From: Marsupella aquatica
Taxonomy: Eukaryota; Plantae; Marchantiophyta
NCBI GenBank assembly: GCA_973895155.1
Contig: OZ316891.1
Location: 22,519,168-22,583,167 of the forward strand
Direction: 5' to 3'
Length of the DNA stretch: 64,000 bases
The notes below the pieces were generated by a model. That model was not told the origin of the DNA. It saw only the letters and a program-made list of their open reading frames with translations, and ran no database searches. The position numbers and the translations under genes are program-made. Of this stretch, positions 31,088-64,000 are shown one piece after another. Each line of letters opens with the position of its first letter. The first letter of the stretch is position 1.

Positions 31088-32689
31088 CTAAAAACGACCT
31101 TGAGTGGCAACTTCTGGTATAGCCTGCCTGCCTCCAGGTGCTGCTGCATAGGGACCTTTCCTTGCTGCCGTTTCTAGCTTCGTCAGAACTTCTGCTGGGA
31201 ATTGATCTCCCCTTAGGCTTCCCGCAGCTAAAGCACTTGCAACAGCGACACAGCAGGAATGCCGCCACTCCATCCCTTCTTTTAGAGGCTCCGTCTTTGG
31301 ATCCACGAGAACATCGATCAAAGCTTTATGAGAGCAGATCTCCCATAAAATCCAAGATCTTGCAACCAAAGCCCCAATAAATCTGTAGGCCGCCACTCGT
31401 ATTTCCGGAGCTTGTTTCAGCAATGACCACAGTAAGTCTGCAGGTGTTCGACTGGCTATTCCACCAGTTACAGAATATATCAAATTCCGAAGTGAGGACT
31501 CAGCTGATTCGTTCAACAAAGGGGACATGTCCGTTCTTTCAGAACCACACAGTGATGCCAAAGCATGAAGAGCTGCCAGCTGTATACCACCTCCATGTTG
31601 TCTGAAAGCTGCCTCCACAACATGGCGTGCAACTGGGTCACTACTGCTAAGCAGAAGTTCTGCTCCTCGAGCAGATATTCCTATCTGCCCAAGAGCATCA
31701 AGAGCAACTTCTTGCTCATTCAGATTCACATCTGCTGAATCCTCATCACTCGATTTCAAATATTGAAGGTTCTTGTCAATAGCAATGACAATACCACTAG
31801 CATCTGAATCAGTTAGAGGTGACGCTATCAAATGAAACGATGACAAAAGTCGGGCTCCTACAATCATAGCACGTGAGCGCACCAGAGAGTCTATGGAGGG
31901 ATATTCTATTGTAGCAGCAAGATGTCCAATCAAGTTTCCTGTCAAGAGAAACCTTGCACCATTCGGGGTCTCTGAGACCTCCGCAAGAAGCTCCAAGGCA
32001 TTGATTTGCGAGAGTATATCATTGGAGTTACTTAATTCATCTTCTAGCGATTTCAAGATGCCTGCTTGTTGAATTGCAGCAGCAGCTGCGTCTGACAGAC
32101 CAAAGATCTTCGCAGCTATTGACAAAGCACGAATTCTGACCAAAGCAGACTCATGAGAAGCCATTTCTTTAAGCTGCACGGCTCCGGCTCCTCGGTCCAT
32201 GAAGATGAGTTCAAGTCCATTCGGGGCCTTTGCAAGGTCAGCCACTGCATTCCCTGCTGCGGCTGCGACACTCGCATCCCCATCAGCAACTGCGTAGATC
32301 AGGGGCGACACAGCATCCGACTGTGCAAGAATCTGAACTGCAGAGCCATCACCTTGATGACTCTCCAACAGCTTCGCTATCGCAAAGCAAGTAAGCCGTC
32401 GTACAAGCGGCGACGAAGCACTGAACCCTACCACTGCATATGGCAAAGCATACGGAAGAAGCGTCGATCCATAAGAATTGCTGAAAATCTTCTCAAGACA
32501 AGAGGTCACAGCGCTCTCCAGGCCCGGAACGTCCGACCCCCTGTCCAACGCACTGAAGATCACCTGCAGCGGAAACTGCTCCAGAAATTGCTGCGTCGCG
32601 TGGTCCGAAGGAATGCCCGGATACGCAGCGAAATGGGACGCCGCGGCAGCGAGAAGCGGAAAGTCGACGAGCGGACCCCCCTGCCCCAT
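31088..32689 (-). CDS. PSMD5: 26S proteasome non-ATPase regulatory subunit 5 (S5b/Hsm3-like ARM-repeat chaperone), intronless, 533 aa
   Basis: Single 1602-nt ORF. N-terminus LLAAAASHFAAYPG..SD...QFLEQFPL, VRIRAL, DIL..NALELL, C-terminus EGMEWRHSCC...AARKGPY...IPEVAT, all typical of plant PSMD5 homologues; helical-repeat composition. Confidence 0.82.
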   Translation of the reverse strand: MGQGGPLVDFPLLAAAASHFAAYPGIPSDHATQQFLEQFPLQVIFSALDRGSDVPGLESAVTSCLEKIFSNSYGSTLLPYALPYAVVGFSASSPLVRRLTCFAIAKLLESHQGDGSAVQILAQSDAVSPLIYAVADGDASVAAAAGNAVADLAKAPNGLELIFMDRGAGAVQLKEMASHESALVRIRALSIAAKIFGLSDAAAAAIQQAGILKSLEDELSNSNDILSQINALELLAEVSETPNGARFLLTGNLIGHLAATIEYPSIDSLVRSRAMIVGARLLSSFHLIASPLTDSDASGIVIAIDKNLQYLKSSDEDSADVNLNEQEVALDALGQIGISARGAELLLSSSDPVARHVVEAAFRQHGGGIQLAALHALASLCGSERTDMSPLLNESAESSLRNLIYSVTGGIASRTPADLLWSLLKQAPEIRVAAYRFIGALVARSWILWEICSHKALIDVLVDPKTEPLKEGMEWRHSCCVAVASALAAGSLRGDQFPAEVLTKLETAARKGPYAAAPGGRQAIPEVATQGRF

Positions 32690-33319
32690 TAATAGAAGGC
32701 AGTGACCTCGTTTGCAGGATCAGCTCGTCGATTTCTTGGCCAAATTGGATATAGCAAAAGCTCTGTTCCGTCGAAGGATGCGTCGCGAGGAAAGCCCCAA
32801 CTCCTTTCGGGACACAACGAACACAGAGTCCTTCGAACGCAGAGTTTCGACAAAGACACGAGCTTATTACTTCTTCTTCTTCTTCTTCTAGGGATTCCGT
32901 AGAGCATTATTTACGAGACAAGTAACAACTTACTGCACCGTACTCACTCTACCTCGGGTCAGGTTAGCAGAGGGGGCTTACTCTTCCTCGGGTCACCGTA
33001 CTCCACAGTTTAGGTTTTTCCCAAACTTTCTACTCGCGTCCTTCAAATCAAAACTGACAATTTGATGTACTTTAAATCCCTGGTTAGGGGTTATGGCCGC
33101 AAAAGTTAAATTCATAGTCCGTAACTTTTTGCCATGCATGAGTATTGGTTGTATGCCATTACCATTAGTCACTGTAGAGGCTGGTGACAGAATGTTTTTT
33201 ACACAACCTTGTGAAAAAGTTATGACCATTCTTTTACAGCCAAATGCCATCATCCAAACTTTCTAACCTTTGAGAGGCCCACCTGTAGTTTTTGCTCTCT
33301 TCTTTTGAGTTTTGTGTTG

Positions 33320-36981: not shown

Positions 36982-39900
36982 TTACATAGAACCACATGAT
37001 CCAATAAGAAGATCGTAAATGTCACTAGAAGTAATCAAAGTTGTTCCCCCTAGCAGTAACTCAATGCCTTCTGCACCAGGCATAGCGGCTTGAGCTTCCC
37101 TTGCTTCTCTGACCTGAAAATCACAAGAACCAGCACTGATTTAGAGCAAGAGCTGAGAAGTTCCGTTACTGATAGTACTTTCAAATATACTACATTGTCC
37201 ATAACTTAGCTAGCAAGGACTAGTATAATTAAGAAATCCATTCCCACAAAGGCCATCGCCCCCACAAAGGGAATAGGATCAGTCCAAAGCAACGTTACCT
37301 CTACGAAGTTAAGTCCTCCAATGATAAAAACCAAAATTACTTTTTGGTCGCTTATCTTTGGCTTAGCCTGCACAGGACCAGAATCGTGTCAAACTGACAA
37401 AGTCATTGCAGAAATAAAAAGTCATAGCAAACACTGGTAATTGAAAATCAATAAACAGAAATTGCATACAATCCGGCAATAGTTTTAACCTGTCGTAGAC
37501 CGAATCTGCCCAAGCCACCTTTGAAGAAACGCCCCATGCCAGAGGCGTGATGCTCTAAGCCTGGAATGTCCGCTTTTGAAAATATAAGAGAGAGTAATTT
37601 GTTCAACAACCCCGTATGTGCTCCCCCATTGTTAAATTGATTCTCTACAGGGAGAAGCAGCTCTCGAAAAGGACTTTTAGAACTTGCAGCAGAAACTTTA
37701 TGCAAAACATTGAAGACTTCTCCAAGTTTATCACGCAGTTCTAATTTCAGTTGCACTTCTCCATACTCTTCAATTTCTTCCTCATCTTGCGCGGCAGGGT
37801 CTACGCCTTCCCATCTGTCCCAATCATCATCCATTGATGCAGCTTGCTGGGAAACAGCATCATCGCTTGGCTTTAGGGTTTTCTTCATTTTTGTCCCCTG
37901 CAGATGCGCAGCAAGTGCACTTTCAAGGTTTTTTAAGAACCCCAGTGATGCTCCAGGTGAACCTTGCAAAATAGCCTCCACAATGGATTCTTTCAAACCT
38001 TGTTCCTCTTCCCAGAGAAAAGGGCCTCCTTGGCCTTCAACATGCATATCCTCTCCAGCAAGTCCATACCCCACAATGGCAAGAGACAAAGCATCTCTCA
38101 GTGACAGGAGGTCAGCAGAGGAGGCACTTCCTGAAGGTCTCCGCATGCTTTGGGCATACTGGTCCACAATGTCTTGGACCTGCAGGGCAATACTTTGAGT
38201 GCTGTCTCCAGCACTAAGCATTAAAATTCTCTCTGCTCCAGCAAATGTATCCCAACGAGAACCCGACCCCGGCCCTAGTGCTTCTTCTGCTGCTCGTGCT
38301 ATTTGTATCAGAGCCATATGCCGTAAAGCCATTCCTGAATTGTCACTTAATGCTCTCCTCAATGAACGCAATTCCTTGATACTCACAGCCCCTAACCGAC
38401 CCTTTCCTGGAACATTAACCTTCTCTTGCCGAAGCGCTTCCTGAAGCCACTTCCGAATTAGCAATATTGAATCTTTAGTTCGTTTCTCAAGTAAAGTCTC
38501 CATGTATTCAGAGCCTTTTCGATCCCAAGAAGTGCTTAAAGAACCCCCCAACAAGTCAGCCGTTCCTGCAGCTGTATGTGTTGATGAGGGGACAAGATTG
38601 TCAACTCCCTTGGTACTTATTAAAGGAAAGAATGGAAAACACATCCTTGATATGATAGGATGCCCAATATTGTCATCATCGGGATTGACAGGTACTCTCA
38701 GATCCATTGGAGGGCGAGCAATTGTCGATGACAGCACTGAATGAGGAGGCACTGATCTTCTAGGCAGTGAGAAAAATATTCTATCGAGCAAAGAATCACC
38801 ATGGCAACTAGGTGTGATTAGATCTTGACTACGATCAACCAGGACCAGTCCTGCCGGACGCCGAGGGTGTCCTATTCCTTCATGAGGGCTTGAAAGTCCC
38901 GACATAATTTTTCCAACAACATGCGCCAGAGGTCCAAGAGTGAATACTTCACATTTTAAGTCCATCTGCAGAGAACAACAAACCATGCGATTAATTTCGT
39001 CAGTTGTACTCACCATAGATAGTGACGTGTGTAGAGTTTAACTTCCTTGGTTCGGTCATTCACTCGACTAAATAACTTGTAATTTCGATGTGTCCTAACT
39101 AAACGAATCTTTACCAATAAATTTCTAGGTGCCTTAGGAGAGTGGTTCCTCCCTAAATATAGACTTGGTAGAGATATTTCTGTACTGCAAGATTAATATC
39201 TACCGCTAGGACTGTCCAAGAGGAGGCGGGGCATGATTCGTAATCACACTGAAAGAGATGTGTAAATCAGCCTTCCGAATACATTAGGAGATGGAAGACG
39301 GCTAACGAGACTCCTCAGAGTGAAGAAATAGACCTGGGCAATGATATGCTGCAGACAATGTGCAATAAGTGTCGCACCGGCTGGAATATGTTGATCTCCA
39401 GCTGCTTGGGACGCAAGATCTATTCCTGGAATACCTTGCCCTACTGCATGAGTGTCCCGATGATCGGCAAGTGGGGCCTCTGCAACTGACCCCCTAGATG
39501 GGAGCACAAATACTGATTTTGTGAAGGAGCAAACCATCATTGGGATGTGCTTCACTTGTATCTCCGGGACTTCCCATTCAGGCGAACTCTGCTGCTTGGG
39601 AACTTCCACACCATCTTTTCGTTTACCTTCGTCTTCTCTACCCCAATCAATACCTTTTAATACCTTCGATGTCGGAGCTCTTGACGATGGATTTTCTGTC
39701 CCACCCGCCTGGGAGGGTGGTGTCAAATCTCGAATGAGTGAATTTTTGTAATCATGGAAAGCATCGAGACCAAAGGCAGTGTCTGGATGGGCTGAATGTG
39801 CTTCCTGCGACATATACAAACATTGAATCAACTAGTGGATTCCAGGAAATGAAACATATCATAAACTTGAAAATCCTCGGTGACCCACGGAGATTCTTAC

Positions 39901-42123: not shown

Positions 42124-45100
42124 CTACAACTGCAAAACCTGCAAAGTAACACGGTGTTTTGAGAAACTCTCCAAAGGAATCACTTTGGTAAAGGCATCAG
42201 CGGGATTGAGTTTTCCATCAATCTTGACTAGCTCAAAAGTTTTATCAGACACTGCTTGCCTGATAAAATGGTACCTGATATCAATGTGCTTCACCCTGCT
42301 ATCCATCACCTGGTTAGCAGCCAAGTGAAGAGCACTCTGACTATCACAGTTTAGAGTCATTTTTCCATGCTCTAAACCCATCTTCGCGATCAACTTATCC
42401 AACCAAATTGCTTCCTTTGCAGCTTCTGCTGCTGCAACATACTCTGCTTCTGTAGTAGACTGAGATATGCACTTCTGCAAGGTAGATTTCCAACTGATAC
42501 ATCCTCCTCCAAGAGTGTATACAAACCCAGTTGTAGATCTCCTTGTATCCAGACAGCCTCCATAGTCAGAATCTACATAGCCAACTAACGTTCTATTTGA
42601 TCTGTTATCAAATAGTAATCCATAGTCCTGTGTTCCCATCATATACCTGAGAATCCATTTCACAGCTTCCCAATGTACCTTCCCTGGATTTGACATGAAT
42701 CTGCTAACCTTGCCCATCGCTAGGGCCAAGTCAGGCCTAGTACAAGTCATCAAATACATCAGACTGCCTACTGCCTTCTCATAAGGAATCTTAGTCATCA
42801 GACCTTTCTCCACAACATCCGTAGGAGAGAAAGCCGATGATAACTTGAAATGTGAAGCTAAAGGAATACTCACTGGCTTACAGTTCTCCATGTTGAATCT
42901 TGCAAGTACTTTCCTTGCATACTGGCCTTGACTCAAGCACAACTGTCCAGTCTCAGAGTTCCTAAAAATCTCCATCCCTAAGATCCTCTTAGCCTTACCA
43001 AGATCCTTCATCTTGAATTCAGCGCTCAATTTCGCCTTGAGACTGTCAACCTCAAATTGGTCTTTAGCCACAATTAGCATGTCATCCACATAGATCACCA
43101 GAATGATGAAACCAAATACATCATTCTTGATTGATTTCGTATACACACAAGGATCATACACCATCCTTGTAAAATCTTGAGCAAGCATGAAATCATCAAA
43201 CCGCTTGTTCCACTGTCTAGGAGACTGCTTCAATCCATACAAGGACTTGAGTAATCTACAAACTAAGTTCTCTTGGCCTTTCTTCATAAAGCCTAGCGGC
43301 TGTCTCATGAAGATCATCTCTTCCAAGTTGCCATAGAGAAAAGCAGTAACAACATCCATCTGATCCATCACCAGATTAAAAAACACAACAAGCTGACACA
43401 AGATCCGAATTGTGGAATACTTAGCCACCGGTGAAAAGACCTCATTGTAGTCCACTCCTTTCTCCGGAGTGAATCCCTTGGCAACAAGCCTTGCCTTGTA
43501 GATCTTATCTCCACCCTCTGAAGGACTGTCCTTCAACTTGTAAATCCACTTGTTGTCCACCACTTGCTGACCTCTTGGAAGCTCCACCAGCTCCCATGTC
43601 TTGTTGTCACTCAAAGATTGCAACTCCCTCTGCATTGCTGCATTCCACTCATGCTTCTGCTCTGAAGCACAAGCCTCACTGTACGAAGCAGACTCTCCTT
43701 CTTCCAAGATCAAAGCCATGTCATCATCATCAAGTGCAATGTCAATACCATCTAGCTTAGATGAGTCTGCCCATTGACCATACTTGGTAGGAGCTCTAGT
43801 AGAACGACTGGAAGTTCTTCTAGTAGATGACTCAGGCTGATCTGCTGTTGTTGCTGGTTGAATTTGAGGTACCCTAGCAACAATCTGCTCCTCTTGTTCC
43901 ATCACAGGAACCAGTTCCAAGCCCGGAGCTTCTCCATCTCTCCTGTCATGAACAGCATCATGACTAATCTCCCCCTCAACCGGGTCCGGGATGGGAGATT
44001 TCCCCTTTTCAGTATGGGAGTCCTGAGAACTCTCCCCCTCCTTTGATGATTTGGACTCATTAAAGGACACATCTCTACTGACAATTAGTTTACAGGTTAC
44101 TGGATCCCATAACCTATAACCCTTCACACCTTTCTGATAGCCAAGAAAAAAACACTTCTTCGACTTGGACTCCAGTTTGGATCGAAGCTGGGAAGGTGTA
44201 AGCACATAAGCATCACATCCAAAAATCCTCAGATGTGAATAATCTGCTGGACGCTTGTACCTCATTTCATATGGCGTCTTGAATCCAATAGAACTGGATG
44301 GAGAAAAATTTACCAAATAAGCTGCAGTGTTGACAGCTTCAGCCCAAAACTCATGTGGTAAGCATGATTGACTCAACATACTCCTCGAGCGGTCCAATAG
44401 TGTTCGGTTGAGTCTCTCAGAAACACCATTTTGCTGAGGAGTATAATTTGTTGTGAGATGGCGGGTAATCCCTTGCTCCTTACAATACGTTCCAAATTCC
44501 TCGGAACTGTATTCACCGCCGTTATCCGATCGAAGATATCTCACCTTATTACCAGTCTGATTCTCAACTTGGGCTTTCCACTCCTTAAAAGTGGCAAAAA
44601 CATCAGACTTATTGTGTAGAAAGTATATCCACACATACCTTGAGTAATCGTCTATAAACGTGACATAGTATAACCGTCCAGAATGTGAGGGAGTAGGGGC
44701 TGGACCCCACACATCACTATGTACATACTCAAGTACCTCCTTGCTGGTGTGAGTTCCAACTCCGAAGGGTTTCCTGTGCTGCTTCCCTAGCACACAGTGC
44801 TCACAAAATTCCAACTTACAAGACTGCAAATTAGAAAGTAATCCTTTCTTCTGAAGAATAACCAAACCTTTTTCACTCATGTGGCCCAAACGGAAGTGCC
44901 ACAGCCGGGCCGTCTCCTCATGAGATAAGGTTGCATTGGCTTCATCACTGACTACACTACCCTCCAAAACGTATAGATTGCAATGTCTCTTTCCCTTCAA
45001 TACAACTTTAGTACCAGTTGAAACCTGAAGGACACCATTAGCAGAACTCCACTGATGGCCATTTGCTTCTAAAACTCCAAGTGAAATGAGATTTTTCATC

Positions 45101-45342
45101 ATGCTGGGAATATGTCTTACATTCTTCAACGTTCTCACAACACCATCAAACATCTGAAATCTTACAGATCCAAGTCCAACAACTTGACATGGGATTCCAT
45201 TTCCCATCAACACTGACCCGTTGGAAACTGTGTAAGAACTGAAAAAATCTCTCCTAGAGCAAATGTGAAAATTACATGCACTATCTAGAATCCAGTCATC
45301 ACTACCTGGATTTGACAGTACGTTGAGAGCATAGCCTTGACA
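42124..45342 (-). CDS. pol: Copia Pol (protease, integrase, RT, RNase H); uninterrupted and in frame with gag after a single TGA
   Basis: WILDSAC, LWHFRLGH, HSDVWGP, LRSDNGGEY, LYGLKQSPRQW, YVDDM, GYVDSD, ADAFTK; open from 45342 to 42124. Confidence 0.92.
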   Translation of the reverse strand, partial: CQGYALNVLSNPGSDDWILDSACNFHICSRRDFFSSYTVSNGSVLMGNGIPCQVVGLGSVRFQMFDGVVRTLKNVRHIPSMMKNLISLGVLEANGHQWSSANGVLQVSTGTKVVLKGKRHCNLYVLEGSVVSDEANATLSHEETARLWHFRLGHMSEKGLVILQKKGLLSNLQSCKLEFCEHCVLGKQHRKPFGVGTHTSKEVLEYVHSDVWGPAPTPSHSGRLYYVTFIDDYSRYVWIYFLHNKSDVFATFKEWKAQVENQTGNKVRYLRSDNGGEYSSEEFGTYCKEQGITRHLTTNYTPQQNGVSERLNRTLLDRSRSMLSQSCLPHEFWAEAVNTAAYLVNFSPSSSIGFKTPYEMRYKRPADYSHLRIFGCDAYVLTPSQLRSKLESKSKKCFFLGYQKGVKGYRLWDPVTCKLIVSRDVSFNESKSSKEGESSQDSHTEKGKSPIPDPVEGEISHDAVHDRRDGEAPGLELVPVMEQEEQIVARVPQIQPATTADQPESSTRRTSSRSTRAPTKYGQWADSSKLDGIDIALDDDDMALILEEGESASYSEACASEQKHEWNAAMQRELQSLSDNKTWELVELPRGQQVVDNKWIYKLKDSPSEGGDKIYKARLVAKGFTPEKGVDYNEVFSPVAKYSTIRILCQLVVFFNLVMDQMDVVTAFLYGNLEEMIFMRQPLGFMKKGQENLVCRLLKSLYGLKQSPRQWNKRFDDFMLAQDFTRMVYDPCVYTKSIKNDVFGFIILVIYVDDMLIVAKDQFEVDSLKAKLSAEFKMKDLGKAKRILGMEIFRNSETGQLCLSQGQYARKVLARFNMENCKPVSIPLASHFKLSSAFSPTDVVEKGLMTKIPYEKAVGSLMYLMTCTRPDLALAMGKVSRFMSNPGKVHWEAVKWILRYMMGTQDYGLLFDNRSNRTLVGYVDSDYGGCLDTRRSTTGFVYTLGGGCISWKSTLQKCISQSTTEAEYVAAAEAAKEAIWLDKLIAKMGLEHGKMTLNCDSQSALHLAANQVMDSRVKHIDIRYHFIRQAVSDKTFELVKIDGKLNPADAFTKVIPLESFSKHRVTLQVLQL

Positions 45343-46398
45343 TCACAATATGTCATCATCATCGAGTAAATCTACCTCATGCGAGCTTGATGCCGCGTTA
45401 GCAGAGGCAGTAGGGACCTTTACTCGACAATCCCTTTTCATGTGGCCAGGCTTGCCACAATTCCAACATGCAAGAGGCTTCCTCTCTTGCGATTTCCCTC
45501 TGGATTTAGATCTCCCCCGTGATGTAGATCTAAACCTGTTCTGTCCATTTGTGCGCTGCGCTGCTCTTCCCCTGTTCATATTGAGCGCAGTGCCAGAAGA
45601 AGATGTTGTCTGTGATTGACCCAACTTCTTCTGAGCATCATCAGACAATAATGAACTCACCACCTCATTATACGAAATGGACTTCAGATCTCTATACAAG
45701 AGCACTTGTTTCAAGCCCTGATATGACGGCGGTAAGGAGCTTAGCAGAAGCAAGGCCTTATCCTCATCTTCAACTCCTTTTCCCAGGTTTGACAGATCCA
45801 CCGCTAGACTATCAAATTCATCCAGGTGATCCTGCATCTTGCTCCCTTCCTTGAGCCTGAGGCTCATCAAGAGAGACTTCTTGTACAACCGGTCTGACGC
45901 ATCTTCCCGGTAGTACTTCTCTCTTAGAGCCTTGAACAGTGATGTGCAATCCGCATAATCATCCAGTTGCTTGATGATGTGCGGCTTGAGATATAGCATC
46001 ACTGCATTGACAGCAATCACCTGCTCCTGTCTCCATTGCCTCACTGAAATCTCCTCCTCTCCATCATACTGCTCTCGCGATGAAAGCAGATGAGCTAAGC
46101 CCATGGCCCGAAGAACACCCTTCACTTGCTTCTCCCATAGCAAGTAATCAGTACGACCATCGTACTTCTCCACCTCAAACTTTACTCCTCCGAATCTAGC
46201 CATCTCCCTCTTCTTCCCAACTACCAACAGCTCTGGTAGTAGTACAGCTTCCTCCACTGCACGCCGCACTGGTGATCGTACCGGTGTTACTTGTTCCTCC
46301 TCAAATGGTAGTAGCTCCTCCTCAGACTCACCGTCTGAACGTCGCGATCCTGAAGCTCCACCGACACCAATTCTTCCAGTATCCTCCGAGTCACTCAT
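45343..46398 (-). CDS. gag: Copia Gag
   Basis: KFEVEKYDGRTDYLLW, ALLLLSSLPPSY, zinc knuckle CWNCGKPGHMKRDC; ends DDDDIL-TGA. Start could be the ATG at 46398 or the internal MARFGG. Confidence 0.88.
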   Translation of the reverse strand: MSDSEDTGRIGVGGASGSRRSDGESEEELLPFEEEQVTPVRSPVRRAVEEAVLLPELLVVGKKREMARFGGVKFEVEKYDGRTDYLLWEKQVKGVLRAMGLAHLLSSREQYDGEEEISVRQWRQEQVIAVNAVMLYLKPHIIKQLDDYADCTSLFKALREKYYREDASDRLYKKSLLMSLRLKEGSKMQDHLDEFDSLAVDLSNLGKGVEDEDKALLLLSSLPPSYQGLKQVLLYRDLKSISYNEVVSSLLSDDAQKKLGQSQTTSSSGTALNMNRGRAAQRTNGQNRFRSTSRGRSKSRGKSQERKPLACWNCGKPGHMKRDCRVKVPTASANAASSSHEVDLLDDDDIL

Positions 46399-49300
46399 AT
46401 GAAACAATCATGAAAAAATATCTTTTTTCAAAACTTCTCGCAAAACTCAAAACTCAACACCGCCACGGCCCACGAAGCTAGGAGTCCAATACTGAAAACC
46501 GAAATCAAAATCGAAATTCGACAGAAAAGTTATTCAAATTTTGGTCGGGGTGGGTAAAACCTTGGGAAACTCCCCCGTTTTGACCACCTCGGAGAATAAC
46601 CAAAATACCAAGTACAACCCGTCGTCGGAATTGGGATGTGATTGGTGCGCCGCGTTGCTAACTCCAGTGGCAACGTCCTCACCGAAAAAGAACCAACAAA
46701 GTTACTGTTCGGCGGACGGATTCTTTGCCGGACGACCGAAAAATAGCTCTCTCTTTTTTGGGAATATTCCCGCACAGTCCGACAGGTCTCACAGGGGGCT
46801 GTTCCCCCTGTCGGAGCAGTTAAAACGGAGGGCGGCAGGTCCCGGCACAAGGAGAACAAGAGGAAGCGGAAAAAAGGTTAAAAATAGGCCTAAAGGGGGT
46901 GCTAAGGCCCTTTTTTGAAAAATACACTCTAAAACGCGCACACGCATTGCGCATACGCGTGTCGAGCGTACAGGGTGTACAGGGCATCGGGCCGGGTACG
47001 AGTCGTAGCCGTGGCCGGTTTACGAGGCGTATGGCCGGGGTGAGGTCAGCCGGATCACGGCTGCTAAGGCAGTCGCATATTCGCGACTACAGGGTCCCGT
47101 GAGGGGCCGGCCGGGGGTTCACTAAGGAAGGAGGGCAGGGACGGGGCCTAAAGGAGGTGCGACCGGCGGCAGCAGCCGGCCGGCGCAAGACAAGTAAATG
47201 GGGCCGGGGCGTGGGCGACGAGGAGCCCGAAAGGGGGGAGGGACAGGGTGCGCCCGGTCACGCGTATAGCGCCGGCCGGCGCTGCGTGAGGCGCCGTGCG
47301 CCTAATATCACGGGGTGCGGGGCGGTGGGGGCAATTCAATACGTGGCCGATACAAGGCCGATATGAGGTGTGTATACACCTCGTTAAAAGACGCCCTAAA
47401 ACCCCCTATAAATGCCAAAAATTGACTCCGCAAGTAACGTGACAAATGCACACCTTAATTGCCGCTGTTTCTCATGAGAAAGTGAACGCCGCCGACGGGA
47501 AAAGTTGCCGAATTGAATCGGCATAGTCTGCAGCTCCAGCAGAGTAAATAATTTCCGTCGCGTCGTCGTCACTCCGCGTCAAGTGCCAATCCCGGGCTCA
47601 AAATGACCGCCTCGCCGCGATCAAACCGTTGAGCCATGGCACTTCGCATCTCTTCCACCGAATCGGACGTCACGAAGAGAAACCCGGTTTAGATGAGAAT
47701 AAGCTCCATAGCTTGTGAAAAAACCTGAACGCCTTCGTCACTCGTCACGTCGCACTCGGTAACAACTCGGCAGCAACTCAGCTACCGAAACGACCAGCTC
47801 GTTTCAACCTTCAACTTGAGCAATAATGTGCGATCCCCCGAACACCGCACAGCTCACTCCGTTGAAAAACACGAACTCTGGTCTCTCCCCCAAAAAATAC
47901 CGTCGAACACGAATAAACCTTGAACGACGCAAACTTCAATTCCTCCGCACCACGGATACCGATCAGCGAGTTCTAACCACCGTTAGAAAGCCCTCTCACT
48001 AACCTATCTGCTCAGCCACACACAATCAAGTTTCATGCGACGAAACTCTGAATGTACCATCGACAATGAACGCTGGAAAAACCTGTCACGAAAAAACCTC
48101 ATCACCTCCCAGGCATGCTCTGATACCACTTGTTGAGCATAGACGACATTCGCAATGGCAAGCCCATGAACCATCCAACGCACAATAGTCAACACAGAGA
48201 GATATGTGGTTCACCTCCACATGAGGCTACGTCCACGGGAACACACAAGAGCTTTACTGCACTCTAGGCCGACCGGCCATACCAAGCATCCACAGCACAA
48301 GCTCTTCCTATCTCTCAACTAGCTCCGTAACAATGAGCCTAAGTTCCACCAGGGTCTGGCATCAGCCCTGGCTATATGCACAATAGCACTACGGCTAACA
48401 TTAGCTAAGTCCTAACCCGAGTTAGCCTAACTGTAGTTAGCTCATGAGTCACAAGACTAGAGCAATATCTAACAGTTGTTTCCCGCTACGGCCCGAGTTT
48501 GCCAGAACGTAAACTAATACTCTATCATTTTTTCACCCGCTCCGGCCCGATCTAAACATTGTGCCATTGACTTTAGGTTTATGTTTTGGCACCCTTTACC
48601 TTTTGTGGCTCGCTCCAGGCCTATCAACTTTGTGCCATCAACTTCTTCCTTGTGGAGTTGTGGTTCATGTTCTGGCAACATTCTTGTCCAACAAAGTCAT
48701 GCCCCGCTAGGGAGTCGTGCTTGCTTCGTAACAAAGTATAGCCTAGTACTTTGGTTAGAAATCATGATTGATAGAGTCTTGGTCGCTGTTGTTCTGCCAA
48801 ATGTTTCTTCTCTATGGAGTTGTGGTTCATTTTTTGGCAACACTTCTTTCCAATGGAGTCATCTTTGTTTCATAATTGTTTCATAATAGAGTCTAAGTGT
48901 TCAGGCAGTACTTTGGATAAGAGTCATGATTAATGATAGAGTATTGGTTTATGTTATGGCAAACTTGGGCCAGAGCAACCAACAACAATGGGGACTTGGG
49001 CTGGAGCGGACGAAAGCAAGTGAAGGGTGCCAGAACATAAACTCAAAGTCGACGGCACAAAGTTGTTCGAGCCGGAGCAGGTGACAAAATGGTAGAGTGT
49101 AGTTTATGTTCTGGCAAACTCGGGCCGGAGCGGGCAGCAACATCGGGGACTGGGACGGGCAGTGTACGGGGTCCCAAGAAGATTGGGGAGCATTAATGCG
49201 GTGTAGATTTAACGCGGGGTTATATTTGTTACTATTGCTCTAGTTTTGTTTTTACTAGCCTGTTCCCTCTTGCTCTATATTTGTTAATGCAAGCCTGATT

Positions 49301-52300: not shown

Positions 52301-52593
52301 TTCCTACGCCCCCAGCCCTGGTGAATGCCCATACTTCACAGCTACGCAACGACAGATCTGATCTGGTTTCTTCAATTTGGTTGCATTTCAATCAGACCCA
52401 CTTGCACAAGCATTCTGCTTTGAGTGAGTTTCGTCAGAATTGTTGAAGAGATATTCCTCGACTTCATGACCGATTGGGCTACTGTGGATTGGGAATTGGG
52501 CACTTGCATCACGGCGGAGAAGGAGCTCTCGAGGAGGTGAACTGTGGAAGAGTTGGATTGAAGATCGGAGAGTTGCAATATCGAGGGGGAGAA

Positions 52594-53697
52594 ATGGCGA
52601 CGGCAGTGGAGGAAGTCGCTCCCCAGGCAATTGCGGAGTTGAAGTTGGAGGACCCCAAGCCAGCAGCGTTTGATCGGCATCTGGAGCTGTTTGATGCAAG
52701 GCAAGTGCAGATCCCTCCATTCAAGGCTCCCAAGATCTACAACAGTGTGGTCGACCTGATTGGGTGGACCCCTCTTGTGGAGATCAATCACATTACGAAG
52801 AAAGAGGGCGCAGTTGCAAGGATTGTGGCCAAGGTTGAAGGACTCAACCCCGGTGGTTCTGTCAAAGACAGAATAGCTCTCACCATGATTGAAGATGCCG
52901 AAGCAAAGGGCTTGATTACACCTGGAGTGAGTACTCTCGTGGAGCCCACAAGCGGCAACACTGGTATTGGTCTGGCCCTGGTGGGCGTCCAAAGGGGTTA
53001 CAAGGTAGTGTTCGTTATGCCCCACACCTATTCTCTTGAGCGACGAATCGTCATGCGAGCTCTTGGTGCAGAAATCCATGTCACAGATGCAATGAAAGGG
53101 TTGGATGGATTATTCGGAAAATGTAACCAACTGCTCGCAGATATTCCTAATTCTCATATGCTCGCCCAATTTGATAATGTATATAATCCTCTAGCCCATT
53201 TCAAGACGACGGGGCCTGAAGTATGGGCAGCTACCGAAGGAAAGGTGGACATATTCGTGGGAGTCGCTGGAACTGGTGGAACTATTACAGGAGTGGGTCG
53301 TTATCTGCACAGCATGAATCCAAACATAAAAATTGTTGCTCTGGAACCAGAAGAAAGTCCAGTTATGCAAGGGGGCCAACCAGGTCCTCATCCAATACAA
53401 GGCACTGGGCCCGGCATCATTCCAAGCAACACCGATGTATCAGTTTTTGATGAAATATTCAGTGTCTCCGGTCCTGAAGCCTTAACCATGGCAAGGAGAC
53501 TGTCAGCCGAGGAAGGGCTGTTTGTGGGGATATCGTCGGGTGCTGCAATTGCTGGAGCTTTGAAGGTAGCCAAAAGACCAGAGAATGCTGGCAAGCTCAT
53601 TGTAACTCTGTTACCAAGCATGGGTGAGAGATATCTTAGCACTGCTCTCTTTGCGTCAATCAAGGAAGAAATGGAAAATTTGAAATTTGATGATTAA
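52594..53697 (+). CDS. OASTL: Cysteine synthase-like / O-acetylserine(thiol)lyase family (BSAS) PLP enzyme, intronless, 367 aa
   Basis: LIGWTPLV, PGGSVKDRIA (PLP Lys), EPTSGNTGIGLA, QFDN, GTGGT, GISSGAA, PSMGERYLST. Confidence 0.92.
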   Translation: MATAVEEVAPQAIAELKLEDPKPAAFDRHLELFDARQVQIPPFKAPKIYNSVVDLIGWTPLVEINHITKKEGAVARIVAKVEGLNPGGSVKDRIALTMIEDAEAKGLITPGVSTLVEPTSGNTGIGLALVGVQRGYKVVFVMPHTYSLERRIVMRALGAEIHVTDAMKGLDGLFGKCNQLLADIPNSHMLAQFDNVYNPLAHFKTTGPEVWAATEGKVDIFVGVAGTGGTITGVGRYLHSMNPNIKIVALEPEESPVMQGGQPGPHPIQGTGPGIIPSNTDVSVFDEIFSVSGPEALTMARRLSAEEGLFVGISSGAAIAGALKVAKRPENAGKLIVTLLPSMGERYLSTALFASIKEEMENLKFDD

Positions 53698-55519: not shown

Positions 55520-58500
55520 TTTTTTTTTTTGCCTCGAAAAGACTCAATGAAATCCATTCAAAAAGCCAGAATACAGAAAGGGGGCCAAAAGCAACCACCC
55601 GGAAGGACCAGAGGTCAAGGTGCCGGGGCCGGTGAAGCCGGAACCGAGTAAGAAGCCACGCCTCAAAAAAGGCAGCCAAACTAGAAATTTGGAAACTACT
55701 ACAGGAGCAGCACACCCCCAAAGACCGGTCAGTGAACAGGGACCGGCGAGGTACTGAACAGTAGGTCCGTGAAAGAAAAACAATCAGTCTACCAGTAGTG
55801 CAGCTTCAAAACCCAAAGGATCCGTTGAATCATGGAGGACGCGGAGGAACAGGTTGAACCTGAAGTGTGTCTTCATGAATCTGCCATAAGCCATCCCACG
55901 CTCCAAATGCCCGGGCCAGGTCCCGTCGTGCATCAGCGAAGGTGGTCTTCCCTGACCGAATCCTGGCCCTATGTCTGGCCCAGTCACGTTTGAGGTAAAT
56001 GCCAAGGCGTTGCCAGGCCTTCCTGATGACTCCGTGAGGATTTGGTCGTGTATGCTCAATAAAGTGTGTGCATCGGTCCTTCCAGATATTCCAGCAAATA
56101 ATAGCCCCGAGAAGATGCCAGAGCTTTGCTGGAATGTCCCACGTTTCTGGAAGTTCAGCCCCGACAAAAATGTGGACTGGTAGGAGGAGGATCGGTCCTG
56201 CTCCGTGAGAGAACGCGCATTGTTGAAGAATGACTTGCACCCAGGTCCATATCCCCTGAGACACAGCACACTCCCAAATGCAATGAACGATGTCTTCGTG
56301 TTGGCTCAAACCGCATCTAGTGCACCATGTACTAGGATCAGTGGGTGGGAGACGAGGAAACCTCCAGTGCTGTGTCGCCGGGATGCGGTAAAGCAGTTGC
56401 CACAGGTAACAGCTTTCCCGAGCAGCACAAAAGGGGAGCCAGGTGCGTGTCCATAGTGTTCCAGGGTCAGGGGTCCAGTTCAGTCGAAGTGCCCATTTGT
56501 GCAAGGCCTTGTGGAGGATTCTGGGGGATCTCCCCTGGATTACCCGTAAATGAGCAGTGGACGTATCCAGGAAAGGAAGGCCATCCTTCCACTCGTGCTG
56601 GAGCAAGGGTGCCAAAAGGCCGATGGGCCTCCCGATGCGAAGCATGAGGGCTGCAGCAGCACTCGACTTCCTAACCAAAACCCTGTGCAGGAGTGCCTCC
56701 GGTGGTGGTGCAAAAGTGGCCATCTTGTGTAGACAGTTGTTGATGACTTGGAAGGTCCGTTTTGGTGCTGAGGTAGCCTGGGCGAATTGCCATTGGGTCG
56801 TAATGAGTTGCCTCATGGTAGAGAACTCCCAGATGTACAGGTTGCCATTCGGAAGCCATGCTTCCATGAAAATTGGGAGTACTCCTCTAGGCTCATGGTG
56901 CAGTTCCGGAACACTCTTGAGATTGGCTATCATCTTCTGGTAAGCGCAAGCACAATTCCGGGGTAAAAGTGCACTAGGCCCGTCCTCCCACCTCAGGAAG
57001 TGCCCCTGTGCATCCAGGACATCCTGCATCAAATGAAAACCTGCCCTCCTGATTTTACGTTGTGGATTGCTGTGGCACTTCGCCCCACTGGAGTTGATAT
57101 GGTTGAGATGAGGTCGCCAGAGAGGGAGGTGCCTCCACCCTTCTAAGTGTCCCGGAGGTGTGGGCCTCAAATGTTTCTTGACAACATTCCATGCAGTGCA
57201 GACATTGATCCAGACCTGTGAGCCATCCCGAGGGAGAGTATGGCAGTGAGAGAATGCCCACGTAAACTCGTCAGCTCCCCATTTTTGCAAAGAGAGTTTC
57301 CTAATTTCAAATTGAAGGAGTCATCACAGGGGGTGATCTCCTTCCGCCAAAGCCCAAATTATGAAACTCCCAGCCAAAGCTCGGAATTGTGTCACCAAGG
57401 AGATCAATCCGAGTCCCCCGTGACTCTTAGGCTTGGTGATAGTTGCAAAATCAACCCTGGCCCGAGCCTTAGTGTTCTGCCCCGCCCACCCAAAGGCGGT
57501 AATCTTCTTTTGCAAGTTGTCTAGCGTGCTAAGCTGCCCCGCCCATATGGTAAGAGAGAACCACAGAGTGCTCAGAACCAAGTGATTGGCCACAATGACC
57601 CGGGCGATCAGCGAGCCAGAGGTCTTACGGACTTTATCCAATCTAGACTCCAGCTTTTCAGATAGATAATGGACCATCTGATGTTCCGAAATGTGCTGCG
57701 CGATAGGAATCCCAAGGAGCTTAGTGGCGCTGTGTTCATCTTCCCACCCCCAGGGTAGCCGCCTGAATTCAATTGGGATCCTCCGTGGAGAAATGTATGC
57801 GGCCTTGGTTTTTTCCCAGGCACAGAAAAGGCCGGAAGCCTTGCCGAAGAGGTCTAGAACCAGCTTGCTTCTATCGAGAAATTGCGTCACGGCCTGAATC
57901 AGTAGGGCTAAGTCGTCAGCAAACAAATTATGAATATTGTGTACCCCCAGGTGTGGGATGTCGACCCCCTGAATGGAGCCCCTGCTGACTTCTCTGCTTA
58001 AGATGTTGCTAAGGGAGTCGATCGCAATAAGAAAAAGTAGAGGAGACAATGGACACCCCTGTCTCACCGAGCGGGCAAGGTTAAAAGGTGAGGCCATCTT
58101 CCCATTAAGAAGCACTGCCGAAAATGCAGAGGCATGGGTGGCACTCAGAAATCGCGTGAGCAGGCCGTTGAACCCCGTCTTCTCCAAGATTGACAGCAGG
58201 AAATGCCATTCAAGCTTGTCGAAGGCCTTGATGATGTCTAGCTTCAGTAGTATGTAATCCAAGCCAGATGTCTTAGCATGGTGCAGCGTTTCGTTTAGAA
58301 GCATAAGAGAATGGTGGATGTTGCGCCCCGGGAGGAAGGCAAATTGCTGAGGCGAGATGAAACGCTGTAAAATCGGAATAAGCCGCATCTGGAAAGCTTT
58401 AGCTCCGATCTTATGGGCTACATTCAACAACGTAATGGGGCGCTTATTGGTGAGGGATCTTTGGTTGTCTTTCTTTGGGAGGAGGACAATGAGGCCCCGG

Positions 58501-58742
58501 GTGATCTCGGGAGAGAAGTCCTCCTCAGCCAGGCCAAGCAAAAGTGCTCTGTGAAGCGATGGGCCCACCGTGTGCCAATTTGCCACGAAGAATTCGACGG
58601 GGACCCCGTCTGGGCCAGGGCATCTATTGAATGCCAGCGCAGCTGCTGCTTTCCCAAGTTCTTCCACCGTGAGGGGTGCATTGAGCAGATTCTGATCCTC
58701 CAACGTGATGCGCCTAGATTGTAACTCGAGGACCTGAGACAC
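55520..58742 (-). mobile_element. 5'-truncated L1/Tx1-type LINE retrotransposon
   Basis: Poly(A) tail seen as T11 at 55520-55530; TSD TGCTGCCAATCAGC at 55506-55519 and 58743-58756; RT motifs CPGPDG, RPITLLN, KLDIIKAFD, RQGCPLSP, LFADD; zf-RVT CTRC...HCIWEC; endonuclease absent. Confidence 0.95.
55830..58742 (-). pseudogene. LINE ORF2 remnant (RT plus C-terminal zinc finger) broken by TGA-TGA at 57321-57326
   Basis: ORFs 57324..58751 and 55830..57290 are in the same frame, separated only by two adjacent TGA codons. Confidence 0.88.
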
Positions 58743-60381
58743 TGCTGCCAATCAGCTTTTGAATGTGTGGAAAGGTCGGACATTAAATGATTGAATTGGG
58801 CAATTGATACAGGACTATAGATACAGCTTTAGGTGGTTTTAATGGTCATCATCATCAAAATGCTTCTCAGACATGGCCAAATGAAAAGTATACCCTTGTT
58901 AATAATTTATTTGAACATTTTGCTTCACCATGCTGTCGCCCCTGTCACCTCTACATTTCCCCTATCACCCTCGGATCTTGCAGAGGGACCTCTCTTTTCA
59001 CCCTGCAGTTTCCCTGTCACCCTTTGTTTGTCCCTGTTCACCTGCAGTTTCCCCTATCACACTTTGTTCTCTTTGGAAATGGACAGACTTGTTTAGAGCC
59101 CTCACTTTGCCCCTATCACACTTTATTTCTCAGTGGAGAGAGCTCAATGGAGCTCTAACTGAGCTTTATTTGGAAGCTCAGTATGATTTTGATTTGAAAA
59201 TAATACAATCTTACTGCAAGGAATTTTCTGCATTTCATTGTCCTCTCTCAAGTATAAAGCATGGCTCGGTTGCAGCTATTATGAAGTGGAACTCACATCA
59301 TACTTTTTGAAATACTCAAAATACAACCTATTAGAAAGTTATGGAACTTGTGGTGGACAATGTTACAGTCCATTTGGGCTATTTAAATCTACATTTAGGG
59401 CTTACTCTTGTTATCCATGGCCACTGGGGAGTCATGGCTGTAGCCCCCTAGGGCTCACTCCACTAGGGATCACCCGCCTTGGGGATTACATCCCGTAACC
59501 CCCTTGCAGCAATGGGTTACCCTACACCACTTAACTGATCTTCTCAATCCCTGACCACTTGGGGTCATGGCTACCCCCTTAGGTTCACCACCTGGAGCAT
59601 TACTTCCCAAAACCGCCTTGCAGCCATGGGTTACCCTGCACCTCTTAATTGATCATACCCAATTTCCCTGGTTGTACTTGGGGATCTTGAACTTACTTCT
59701 TGCTGATGATTCACCACAAAGACTCACTTCTAGGAGTAACATGTTTAACATTTAATGGTGTCCTGCAGTTCATTGAACATTGACTCGAAACAGCAACAGC
59801 CGGCCCCCCTGCTGGAATAAAAAAAATTCTAAGTACTACTAGCTGCATGTGAAACCCATCTTTGGGGGAGGATGTAGTCTGAGTTGGTGGTCATTGTCTG
59901 CCTTATAGATTTGCTTGAAGATGCAATTTATTATGTAATTGCATTTCCAAGTATCGTAGGTAAATGAACCCCATCTTTAAACCCCATCTTTGAGAGTATT
60001 AGAATGAATGAACCCCACCTTTAGGATGAGATAAATGCTAAAAGAGGACACTCCCCTAGGATACATCCCACACAGCCCCCTTCCCACCATGGGTTACCCT
60101 ATACCACTTAAGTCACCCAACGCCATTTATTTGATCCTATATTCCCAACTTAATTGATTGTAGTCGGGGTTCTTGAACTTAGTTCTTGCTGACGATTGTG
60201 CGTCATAATGGGCATAGTTCACGCCTCCACCGCCGTCTTTCTCTAGGACAGAGCTCCCACACTTGGTTCTCTCTCGACTCTTGTAGAGTTGTAGTATTCC
60301 TTGTTGCTTCTCCCTCCATCATTCCGGCCAAGGAATTTCTTGCGGGTTCTCACTCCAGCATTGCCCCTTGCAGCTGCCCAA

Positions 60382-60745
60382 TTTCTTGGGTAGGTTCTCA
60401 CTGCAGCTGTGATTGAGCTGAGTGAGCAATTCCTGGTGTGTGGATTCTCAGTTCGCCAGCATTGCAGCACGGCATTTTCTTGGGTAGGTTCTCGCTGCAG
60501 CTGTGATTGAGCTGAGTGAGCAATTCCTTGTGTGTGGATTCTCAGTTCGTCAGCATTGCAGCACGGCATTTTCTTGGGTTGGTTCTCCACTGCAGCACTG
60601 ACTGATTGAGCTGAGTGAGCAATTCCTTGTGTGTGGATTCTCAGTCCGTCAGCATTGCAGCTGGCCATTTTCTCTGGGTAGGTTCTCACTGCAGCACTGA
60701 GTAAGCTGAGTGAGCAATTTCTTGTTTGTAGATTCAGCATTGCAG
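60382..60745. repeat. Tandem repeat of ~95-bp units (about 4 copies) immediately upstream of the NRPE7-like ATG
   Basis: Unit tttcttgggtaggttctc..ctgcagc...gagctgagtgagcaattcct.gtgtgtggattctcagt.cg.cagcattgcag at ~60382, ~60477, ~60571 and ~60670. Confidence 0.88.
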
Positions 60746-60863
60746 CAGAAAGATATTCCTGGTAGAGCTGCATTGGAGACTTTGGAGCCTTCTTTTCTTC
60801 GAGAGCGAGTGAGAGTATTTGGAGCCCTCTTTCTTCGAGACCGATTTGTGAGGGAGTGGCCAG

Positions 60864-62783
60864 ATGTTTGCTGAAGTGGAGTTTGAGTGGACGGTTCTGG
60901 TGCAGCCCGATGCCATGAGAAGCAGCGCCCACATTCACAAAGCGGTGGTAAGCTTTCTCTGCTTTTGCCTCCTGATTTATTCGCTCTTTGCCCAACGTCT
61001 GACCCACAACAGAAGAAAGAAAGAAAGGAAGAAAGAAAATCCTTCATTCTAGCGAAAGAATCTATATCTGAATATTGGTAAATTGATTCATGTGGAAGCC
61101 TTCTAAAGTACCCTCTGTTTTCAAGAAGACCAAGACAGGGAATCTTGAAATATGTGCTACATTGTGCGAGCATTTCAAACTCGTGTATGTACAGTAGCTG
61201 AAGGGGACGCCCTCTACACTGTAGAGATTGATTTATAACTCTGCTCAGTTTGCAACATCTAAATCCGTGCCGGGGTGGCGACAATCTTGTCCATTGGGTG
61301 ACGGTGAGCTTCAGTCTTACAATGAGGAAAAACGAAGACACAGACGAAACCTTTGAAGAAAACTTTGGACTGGAGACCAGGACTTTTCCCCTCCTCTTTC
61401 CCGCCTTGGTACTAGCAGGGGCCAAATCGAAGGAACCAAATGGAAGGAACCATTTCTTTCAGTGGGAGCCGAGCGGGTCACCTAGACCCCGTTGTCTGAT
61501 TAGTATTCCCCTTGTTTTGGTACAGATTGTGGCATTGCTCAAGGATTTCCAGGACGTGAAGTGCACGGCACAGCATGGATATCATGTTGCCGTCACTACC
61601 CTTGAGAGCATCGGCGAGGGAAGGATTTGGGAGCGGCGGGCATGCGCTGCGTTTCCCGTCCGTTTTCGATGTATCGTGTTCAACGTCTTCAAGTCCGAGC
61701 ACGTCTTCTCTGTCGTCACGGAGGTGTAATTTTTCTCTACTCGAATCCCATTATCATCCCTTTTACTTTCTAATACTGGATTTCAAAGACCGCGAGTCTG
61801 TTTTCTTCCCCTAACGGATGCATGTGAGAGATTGTGAGATTGGTCGTCCTGGCCTTCAGAACGGGAAGAGAGAAGGTTGGTATGGACTCTTCCAAGCAGT
61901 AGAATCACTAAGGTAGAAAGCCAGAAATCGAATGGACTTCACATTGGACTTTCGCCCTCCACACAAAAAAATCTCGACCTCGGCGTCAACTGTCTGAAAT
62001 TCGTTACCGAATTCTGAAGGCATCTGACATCCTTGGGTTGGTGAGGACCAGATAGCTATAGTGGAAAATGCCGAAATATTTCATGAAGGACCTTGTAATC
62101 AAGCGACTGGAGTATTGCCTTGACACTAGAGTAAGAGAAACTGATGCATATATTGTGGAGCAAGAGAAATTAAAGCGTAAGGTGCAGGGGAATTGAAATT
62201 GAGGGAGAAGTATCATGGAGTTATTGTATCAGAAGAAGGTGTACCATAGAATCACAAACTGAAGCATTCAGTAATTATACAGTCTCAGAAACTGAATTAG
62301 GAAAACTGTGCACTAATGTATCGCAAGGTACAAAACCTGAACTGCAATGTACATTCTGTGTGGCAGGCAGCGTCGTCTGGAATTTCGTCGAGATGTGGAT
62401 GCTTCGAAAATCTTTTCATCTCACCAAAATTCTTGGCAGAGTACGAGGTTTTGAGCACGGAGATCGATGGTCTAGAAGTAACCAAGTGGCGGCATTGCAT
62501 AAACGGAAGCACGATAAAGAAAGGCGATGTGATTCGAGTGCAAATCTTGGGCACCAAGTGGGACCCTTCTGAACGAGGATTGTCTGCGGTGGGCACTCTC
62601 TCTGGCGTCGATGAGAGGTGGCAGAAAGCAACGCCCAAAGCCAATTTTGAATCAGAGAGCTCACGGAAAGTGGCTGGTGATAGCTCGTGGGGAGACCCAC
62701 TGCCACAGGAGGATGATATCGAGGCTTCGGGATGGGGAGACCCAATCACCAATGAGGAGGGTGATCATGGCGGATGGGCCTGA
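60864..62783 (+). CDS. NRPE7: RNA polymerase IV/V subunit 7 (NRPD7/NRPE7-like, Rpb7 family) with a C-terminal WG/GW-repeat extension, 3 exons, 232 aa
   Basis: Exons 60864-60947, 61526-61723, 62367-62783 (GT-AG, phase 0, 699 nt). MFAEVEFEWTVLV...LLKDFQDVKCTAQHGYHVAVTTLESIGEGRI...FPVRFRCIVFNVFKSE...RCGCFENLFIS...IRVQILGTKW...SAVGTL aligns by eye with NRPE7 (GYYVAVTTLDKIGEGKI, RCGPIENVYLS, IGIKW) better than with NRPB7. Confidence 0.85.
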
Positions 62784-64000
62784 CATGTCTGTCATACACT
62801 TAGCTGATTAATGAACAAAAGCAGGCCGCATCGGAGTTGCCTCTCAGGGACAGGAAGGCCGCCTCTGGTGCAATTCAATCCCGAGAGGCTCAGACTTTTT
62901 GCGCATTTCTGCTCTCCGAGAAGGTTGGATCTAGTTTATGAAATCAATCCTTGTGCCACCCCATTACGCCTCCCTCTCAAGGCCCTCCAGTGTATTCTGA
63001 TGACGATCATTTCTCTTACCTCCTTGAAAAAGGATTGGTGGGAGATGGCAGCCGATGGAGGGATCCGCTCAATTTGGCTACAAATGTGTACCTGATATCT
63101 CAGATATCTAGGTACTGTTGTTCGCACCGAGAATCTCTGCAAAGGTGCTGTAGCAGGCCACCAAGCTGTTCATAGTGCAACCTTCGGACAACACCTTCTG
63201 TCATAAGCTGAAATCGAGTCGGGAATATGCAGTTTGTTCTATGGAGGGTGCTTCGGTTTTACGAGGCACCATTTCAAGAGAGATATGCGCTACCTACTCC
63301 TTACTTCCTTATCACATCTTTTTGTCAAGATTACTCGCATTGCAACACCAGGCACGGTGTTTAGGATAGGGAGTGGCAAATATGCCAATGGACTGTTTTG
63401 GGAGGCTTGGCAGATTTTGGAGACCATATCACCAATTGAGATCTGGTAGAGTAGGGGCCTCTATTTCTAGTCAACGACCGGATGTTAGAACTGCTAGATC
63501 CTGATGAGACTGTATTGTCCCCTAAGAAATCAATGACCTGCTTTCCTCGTGCTGTTGTGAGGAAAGTAAATACCCTTTGGATGCTATACCTGGACACCAT
63601 GAGTTTGTAAGACAAAAAGATGAAGGGTACTCGTCAGGGAACAAATCAAGTCTGGAGTTTAGGGATCTGGAAGTCTGTAAATTTTCTGGTCAGCTCCTTC
63701 AATGGCCAACCGTGCCCTCTGTACCAGACTATTCAAGGTCTTCATCTGGGTACTCCGTCTGCAATGTCAGTGTAATGTATTTCTAAATTCGCGTTTAAGC
63801 TTGGGGGTTGATTTCATTACCCCCGAGCCTGTCGAGGTAGGACACTGCTGGCAGACAGGGGAGGTTTTTTGTCAGGAAGGCCCAATAGTTTGTAGCTTTT
63901 AGGTAAGGCATGGTTGTTTTGATGATCTTGGAGCCTGTCAATGTTTCCCATCGATCACTCTTGTCAGTACACGTTCATTTTTCATCCATCGTGGAGACTG

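Follow-up and report, generated by a model that had tools for sequence, protein, structure and literature searches.

Can a core subunit of a plant RNA polymerase itself recruit Argonaute (AGO)? The question is raised by a gene predicted to encode subunit 7 of RNA polymerases IV and V (Pol IV and Pol V), NRPD7/E7, in Marsupella aquatica. The gene lies in a window of 64,000 nucleotides (nt) of contig OZ316891.1 (assembly GCA_973895155.1, forward-strand positions 22,519,168 to 22,583,167), and all coordinates below refer to this window. Its product continues beyond the Rpb7-type core into a tail with tryptophan–glycine motifs (WG, GW and GWG) of the kind known as AGO hooks. The Rpb4/7-type stalk, of which subunit 7 is a part, lies beside the RNA exit path. 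We find a subunit-7 core, an open tail and conserved Trp–Gly motifs together in leafy and complex-thalloid liverworts and not in the other plants sampled; the assignment of the liverwort genera to these two classes is one that we presume. It is likely, judging from the sequences, that the tail provides a liverwort-specific AGO-binding platform on the stalk of Pol V, perhaps also of Pol IV, in addition to the hooks of NRPE1. The hook tail on subunit 7 is a real, conserved and apparently undescribed architecture.

The gene model comprises three predicted exons on the forward strand, encoding 232 amino acids (aa) without an internal stop. Exon 1 (60864..60947, 28 codons from the ATG) aligns with the N-terminus of P0001, an NCBI protein of Calypogeia fissa. 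Exon 2 (61526..61723, 66 codons) covers the SHS2/Rpb7-N region; its match to PF03876 (E=0.013) is below the cut-off, and its top Protein Data Bank (PDB) match is NRPE7 (8hyj_G, E=7.8e-12). Exon 3 (62367..62783) encodes the OB/S1 domain of the Rpb7 fold (62367..62606), the fold being seen in the orthologue P0001, followed by a tail linker (62607..62678, residues 175-198) and a hook region (62679..62783, residues 199-232 and the stop). The predicted introns, 60948..61525 (578 nt) and 61724..62366 (643 nt), are both of the GT-AG type and in phase 0. These introns, the open frame and a full-length alignment with the C. fissa proteins P0001 and P0002 support the three-exon prediction of the initial annotation. 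Identity to these two proteins amounts to 131-132 of 173 positions in the core and 36-37 of 59 positions in the tail, which makes a leafy liverwort the probable source of the window. Homology of the fragment P0008, from the leafy-liverwort group, starts at the same acceptor position as that of M. aquatica intron 2. Contigs of runs X1-X4 that span the introns, for which the kind of contig is unrecorded, show no splice joint; X1 may stem from the source of the window itself. The two introns distinguish the gene from the moss-like loci L001 and L002, which have none in the coding region. An Rfam search of 60000-64000 gave no matches. A 94-bp tandem repeat (60382-60735, 3.7 copies, 89% matches) ends about 130 nt upstream of the ATG.

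The core is that of a Pol IV/V subunit. Both parts of the Rpb7 fold, SHS2 and OB/S1, are recognizable from the matches of exon 2 to Rpb7-family chains and from the model of P0001, the core of which is 76% identical to that of M. aquatica. The predicted fold of P0001 best matches 8hyj_G and also matches RPB7 chains, and by sequence its PDB ranking is NRPE7 (1.7e-27), NRPD7 (2.2e-19) and RPB7 (4.6e-14). For phylogeny, the M. aquatica core was combined with 46 hand-picked rows, mostly full-length proteins from 150 listed representatives together with cluster members from C. fissa and Marchantia paleacea; obvious fragments were omitted and tails excluded. In this 47-row tree the core falls within a 29-row NRPD7/E7 clade at 100/99, apart from NRPB7, as the initial assignment to Pol IV/V had it; an identity as NRPB7 is rejected. 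A 28-row tree recovers the NRPD7/E7 clade at 100/100. All 10 liverwort rows of the larger tree form one clade (100/97), with the M. aquatica model sister to P0001/P0002 (98/92). The orthologue scores nearer NRPE7 than NRPD7, yet the liverworts branch outside the angiosperm copies; because the NRPE7/NRPD7 split is a late duplication, closeness to Arabidopsis NRPE7 says little.

Beyond the end of the OB fold (SAVGTLSG), the frame stays open for 58 further codons until the TGA at 62781-62783. The tail (residues 175-232, 58 aa, 62607-62780) contains 12% G, 10% S and 24% D/E, which agrees with its first description as acidic and Gly/Ser-rich, and four Trp. Three of these stand as WG, GWG and GW at 62688, 62733 and 62775, with the spacing of 15 and 14 aa first reported, and the fourth, at 62619 in the linker, went unmentioned earlier and has no Gly beside it. 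Having three of four Trp next to Gly compares with 0.9 expected (p=0.034, 10,000 shuffles). The hook region is built on a degenerate 45-nt repeat. The internal duplication seen initially is present as a 12-mer at 62688 and 62733, on the + strand only; the 45-nt units agree at 25 of 45 bases, and when the codons of exon 3 were shuffled 5000 times, a comparable 12-mer repeat arose in 22 cases. The 45-nt unit is absent from the output of Tandem Repeats Finder.

Hooked liverwort subunit-7 tails display the sequence features of AGO-hook platforms. The M. aquatica, Marchantia and Riccia sorocarpa tails are enriched in WG/GW/GWG peptides. Degenerate tandem repetition is evident in the 45-nt unit and in a Trp spacing of mostly 10-15 aa. 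Intrinsic disorder with few hydrophobic residues is predicted, as C/F/H/M/Y/I/L/V make up 6-13% of hooked tails, and the P0001 model has a predicted local distance difference test score (pLDDT) <50 over residues 187-238 and a confident core. No Pfam family matches the subunit-7 tails. The M. aquatica copy is the most reduced form of the hooked tail, with the fewest hooks among hooked copies.

Conservation of the Trp residues, on which the initial proposal depended, is found in the orthologue. All three hook Trp are retained in P0001, to which the hook region is identical at 23 of 34 positions and the linker at 12 of 24, and other liverworts carry larger arrays. Three paralogue clusters occur in C. 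fissa (238, 258 and 270 aa), with 3/4, 4/6 and 5/6 Trp hooked. The Marchantia polymorpha protein Mp2g19500 (429 aa) has a tail of about 250 aa in which 14 of 19 Trp are hooked, against 6.3 expected (p=0.0003), and the M. paleacea protein (431 aa) likewise has a tail of about 250 aa and 14/19 hooked Trp (p=0.0002). In R. sorocarpa P0006 the proportion is 11/14 (p=0.006). The fragments P0008 and P0020, placed with leafy-liverwort rows at 100/97, have five and four hooks. Across six hooked tails in which residues were counted, there are 4-19 Trp each and only 0-2 Phe plus Tyr; Trp makes up 6.5-7.5% of every hooked tail, and Gly is its commonest neighbour at positions -2, -1 and +1 (30/53 each).

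Outside this clade such arrays are absent from the plants sampled. The representatives search (E up to 0.001) was evaluated for the best 150 of 280 representatives, many rows being fragments, and cluster look-ups covered 20 of 149 new representatives; word-index searches matched only Calypogeia, Riccia and one further protein, and Marchantia came via the representatives search. Among these best 150 of 280, 129 are hookless, 13 carry a single hook, three carry two and five carry at least three, and all five of the latter lie in the liverwort clade. The initial annotation held that Rpb7-family subunits have no such tail. This is true of the copies in Ceratodon, Selaginella and Diphasiastrum, of two moss-like loci and of six angiosperm-type rows, which end 2-22 aa past the domain without Trp there, but not of two gymnosperm copies with long hookless tails: Pinus canariensis P0007 has an acidic 204-aa tail with 0 Trp, and Ephedra trifurca P0010 an acidic 153-aa tail with 0/2 Trp hooked. 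That a long subunit-7 tail as such implies hooks is rejected by these two cases. The angiosperm models P0014, P0016 and P0019 have longer, probably mispredicted C-termini and no hooks. Because the rows include many fragments, with neither a hornwort nor a fern identified among them, 'liverwort-specific' is limited to the plants sampled.

Searches of other collections added little. A metagenome scan gave 14 loci, classed by reading as 12 moss-like, one archaeal-like and one fungal-like, with no liverwort locus. The Atlas held no usable match for the Marchantia tail and, for the whole protein, only Rpb7-type leads under 0.9. The entire Marchantia protein is present as a single open reading frame (ORF) on a 2,247-nt public contig (P0156), a possible transcript that we do not count as evidence. 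Homology of a further fragment, P0066, begins at the exon 2 start position, and it branches beside the liverwort clade (94/90, unstarred); it may be a deeper liverwort or hornwort copy that shares intron 1, and its record does not extend to the tail. Separately, the Riccia proteins P0015, P0017, P0157 and P0158 are duplicated, faster-evolving subunit-7 copies that have lost hooks, and these hookless duplicates possibly reflect either a split along Pol IV/Pol V lines or decay.

Comparison with a related organism (B; runs X3 and X4) argues for constraint on exon 3. There is no indel, and the 14 placed substitutions comprise seven synonymous and seven nonsynonymous changes, a pN/pS (ratio of nonsynonymous to synonymous differences) of about 0.30 (p=0.024). 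All 14 lie outside 62657-62766; a further difference lies somewhere within 62767-62830. Two synonymous changes in organism B abolish the GT at 62618, which is therefore unlikely to be a splice donor. The initial annotation had named this GT as a site at which the tail could be spliced out, and the candidate donor is rejected.

How might such a tail act? If translated, the hooked subunit 7 would pair with subunit 4 to form the stalk on Pol V, and the Trp residues of the tail would enter the Trp pockets of an AGO, with a member of the AGO4 clade as the likely partner. AGO loaded with small interfering RNA (siRNA) could in this way be held on the stalk near the emerging scaffold RNA, raising the local AGO–siRNA concentration. 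The three hooks of the M. aquatica copy would hold about one AGO, and the Marchantia copy several. One AGO is said to need only two or three Trp (cited in 10.1101/2024.01.20.576478). The NRPE7-NRP(D/E)4 stalk binds Pol V as in Pol II, and the site at which KTF1/SPT5L binds is close to the Pol V RNA exit channel (10.1101/2023.04.30.538882). The NRPE1 of M. paleacea already carries a WG/GW region (PMC4476159), and the subunit-7 tail therefore adds to the NRPE1 hooks and does not replace them. In Arabidopsis, AGO4 recruitment requires the NRPE1 and SPT5L hooks taken together, the two sets being redundant (PMC5204349); the liverwort tail may be the second of two platforms, redundant in part with the C-terminal domain (CTD) of NRPE1, in the role that SPT5L/KTF1 has in angiosperms.

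The initial annotation suggested an AGO platform on the polymerase stalk of this lineage. The conserved hook tail agrees with that proposal, but the trait is shared by liverworts from two classes and is not confined to one species. Probably the tail arose a single time, in the common ancestor of the two classes, and later lengthened or shortened through turnover of its repeats. KTF1/SPT5L is reported to be angiosperm-restricted (PMC4607528), and another source places SPT5L in angiosperms in one passage and in vascular plants in another (10.1101/2024.01.20.576478); the liverwort lineage probably lacks SPT5L. A broader proposal, to which we give clearly less credence, is that liverworts independently built a second AGO platform, the counterpart of SPT5L, into the polymerase core, and that a single-copy shared subunit puts the hooks on Pol IV too. 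Hooks on Pol IV could then couple siRNA production to AGO loading or allow siRNA-guided feedback recruitment of Pol IV.

Several observations weigh against a stalk platform, or against the M. aquatica copy as an example of one. With a WG/GW region already on M. paleacea NRPE1, it is not obvious why a further platform should be needed. The presumed absence of SPT5L rests on surveys of other plants, and the only bryophyte sampled in PMC4607528 is a moss. The hook enrichment of the M. aquatica tail is by itself modest, and it is the orthologues that make the case; among these, the P0003 tail reaches p=0.067. The substitution-free stretch in exon 3 was picked post hoc (p=0.011, or 0.031 with a codon-defined boundary), and a low pLDDT obtained from a 23-row alignment is a weak sign of disorder. 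No Trp is hooked in the tails of the Riccia paralogues P0015 and P0017, which are 121-141 aa long, and the sole R. fluitans copy found is hookless. The M. aquatica copy also lacks four residues of a C-terminal G-D-Y-x-G motif that is kept in C. fissa and Marchantia; in the form G-D-Y/F-L-G this motif is conserved in the family alignment, which is not a demonstration that it defines NRPD7/E7. Lastly, contigs of X1-X4 match the exon 1 region (60857-60958) at about 86% (14 differences over 102 bases), and 61605-61657 in exon 2 and 61836-61969 in intron 2 are matched by a single contig of X1. Judging from these matches, the same organism has one paralogue or more, in which part of the intron is also conserved. 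Given the motif gap and a paralogue in the same sample, the M. aquatica copy may therefore be under relaxed constraint.

The alternative that survives best, although we think it unlikely, is a conserved Trp-motif platform for a partner other than AGO, such as a deadenylase or a chromatin factor with Trp pockets, or a driver of condensates through evenly spaced aromatic residues. The constant Trp density and regular spacing would suit such a role, and 11 of the 39 Trp of M. polymorpha, R. sorocarpa and P0003 combined have no adjacent Gly. Both non-AGO binding and condensates are raised for AGO-hook domains in an SPT6L preprint (10.1101/2024.01.20.576478). The preference for Gly at -2, -1 and +1 and the near exclusion of Tyr and Phe by Trp argue instead for AGO hooks, and the known WG/GW regions of the host polymerases bind AGO4 (PMC10533338, PMC5204349).

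Less probable still is AGO binding that takes place chiefly on Pol IV, or away from the polymerase on a free subunit 4/7 dimer, and serves siRNA loading or Pol IV feedback recruitment. The figure labels of PMC4476159 (Fig. S3) list one D7/E7 in M. paleacea, and the subunit is described as common to Pol IV and Pol V; both polymerases would therefore bear a hooked copy. Hooks were also present in the algal ancestor of NRPD1/E1 (PMC11194755). The nearness of the orthologue to Arabidopsis NRPE7 speaks for Pol V, with little weight given the late duplication, and the hookless Riccia paralogues could be the Pol IV-type copies.

It is improbable to a further degree that the M. aquatica copy is a decaying paralogue with a non-working remnant of a tail, even if the longer liverwort tails work. 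Its low hook number, the four-residue deletion, the second paralogue in the sample and seven amino-acid changes in exon 3 relative to organism B are what decay could produce. Against this, the frame and splice sites are intact, pN/pS is low, the hook region is better conserved with C. fissa than the linker, and the same four-residue gap occurs in three Riccia proteins, one of them the R. sorocarpa copy with 11 hooks. That the tail is a gene-model artefact, from 3' untranslated read-through or a missed splice, is scarcely credible: the C. fissa proteins are themselves annotation models and the M. aquatica exons are predicted, but the same architecture is found in NCBI models of three genera, the Trp positions and stop are conserved with C. 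fissa, and synonymous changes in organism B remove the GT at 62618.

A Pol V stalk platform, if real, would be a new attachment point for AGO in RNA-directed DNA methylation, and the pathway would have gained a second AGO platform twice, on different proteins. Marchantia NRPE1 hook mutants would be predicted to be buffered by subunit 7. The tail also raises the question of whether Pol IV can carry AGO. The reading is testable in the standard model plant Marchantia through changes to a single gene, Mp2g19500, a better object than the reduced M. aquatica copy. Among Pol IV/V subunits, the accessible portions of the literature covered describe AGO hooks only for NRPE1. That literature, which included few subscription papers and excluded preprint supplements listing hook proteins, yielded no description of subunit-7 hooks and no mention of Mp2g19500; D7/E7 is reported in M. 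paleacea, with no tail mentioned in the text available (PMC4476159).

Other features of the window are unrelated to subunit 7. An uninterrupted alpha/beta-hydrolase ORF (2910-3848, +; PF00561, E=4e-23) presumably resembles microbial haloacetate dehalogenases, and horizontal transfer is possible. A second uninterrupted ORF (52447-53694, +; PF00291, E=6e-68) encodes an enzyme dependent on pyridoxal phosphate that we take to be cysteine-synthase-like. On the opposite strand, 31091-32719 (-) and 37451-39831 (-) contain a PSMD5-like proteasome assembly ORF (PF10508, E=1e-22) and long coding exons; the piece of the latter that was searched gave no Pfam match. The stretches 23195-27800 (-), 42127-46407 (-) and 55833-58751 (-) hold, by their translations only, two Ty1/copia-like retroelements and one LINE-like element.

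Compared with known systems, the liverwort protein is closest to NRPD7/NRPE7 of Arabidopsis (PDB 8xmb_G, 8hyj_G), with which it has both fold and clade in common: over residues 1-178 the orthologue aligns with Arabidopsis subunit 7 at E=1.7e-27, with a TM of 0.86 over the target. The solved subunits are tail-less, with 174-178 aa, whereas in hooked liverwort copies the core is followed by 58-254 aa of Trp–Gly repeats. In its predicted disorder, its repetitive WG/GW/GWG motifs, its repeat turnover and its low identity between lineages the tail resembles the NRPE1 CTD (PMC4476159, PMC11194755). The NRPE1 array is located on the largest subunit before the DeCL domain, whereas the liverwort array ends a stalk subunit; AGO4 binding has been shown for NRPE1 and is proposed for the subunit-7 tail. 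Hook tails were also added independently, at separate times in plant evolution, to the existing proteins SPT6L, NERD and SDE3, although none of these is a polymerase subunit, and subunit 7 is absent from the hook-protein list in the part of the preprint available (10.1101/2024.01.20.576478). A functional parallel may be SPT5L/KTF1, likewise a second hook platform near the Pol V RNA exit (10.1101/2023.04.30.538882), redundant with the NRPE1 hooks (PMC5204349). SPT5L/KTF1 is an associated elongation factor, usually with at least 50 motifs and mainly angiosperm (10.1101/2024.01.20.576478, PMC4607528), whereas the liverwort array, which is not homologous to it, has 3-14 hooks and is carried by a core subunit of the polymerase.
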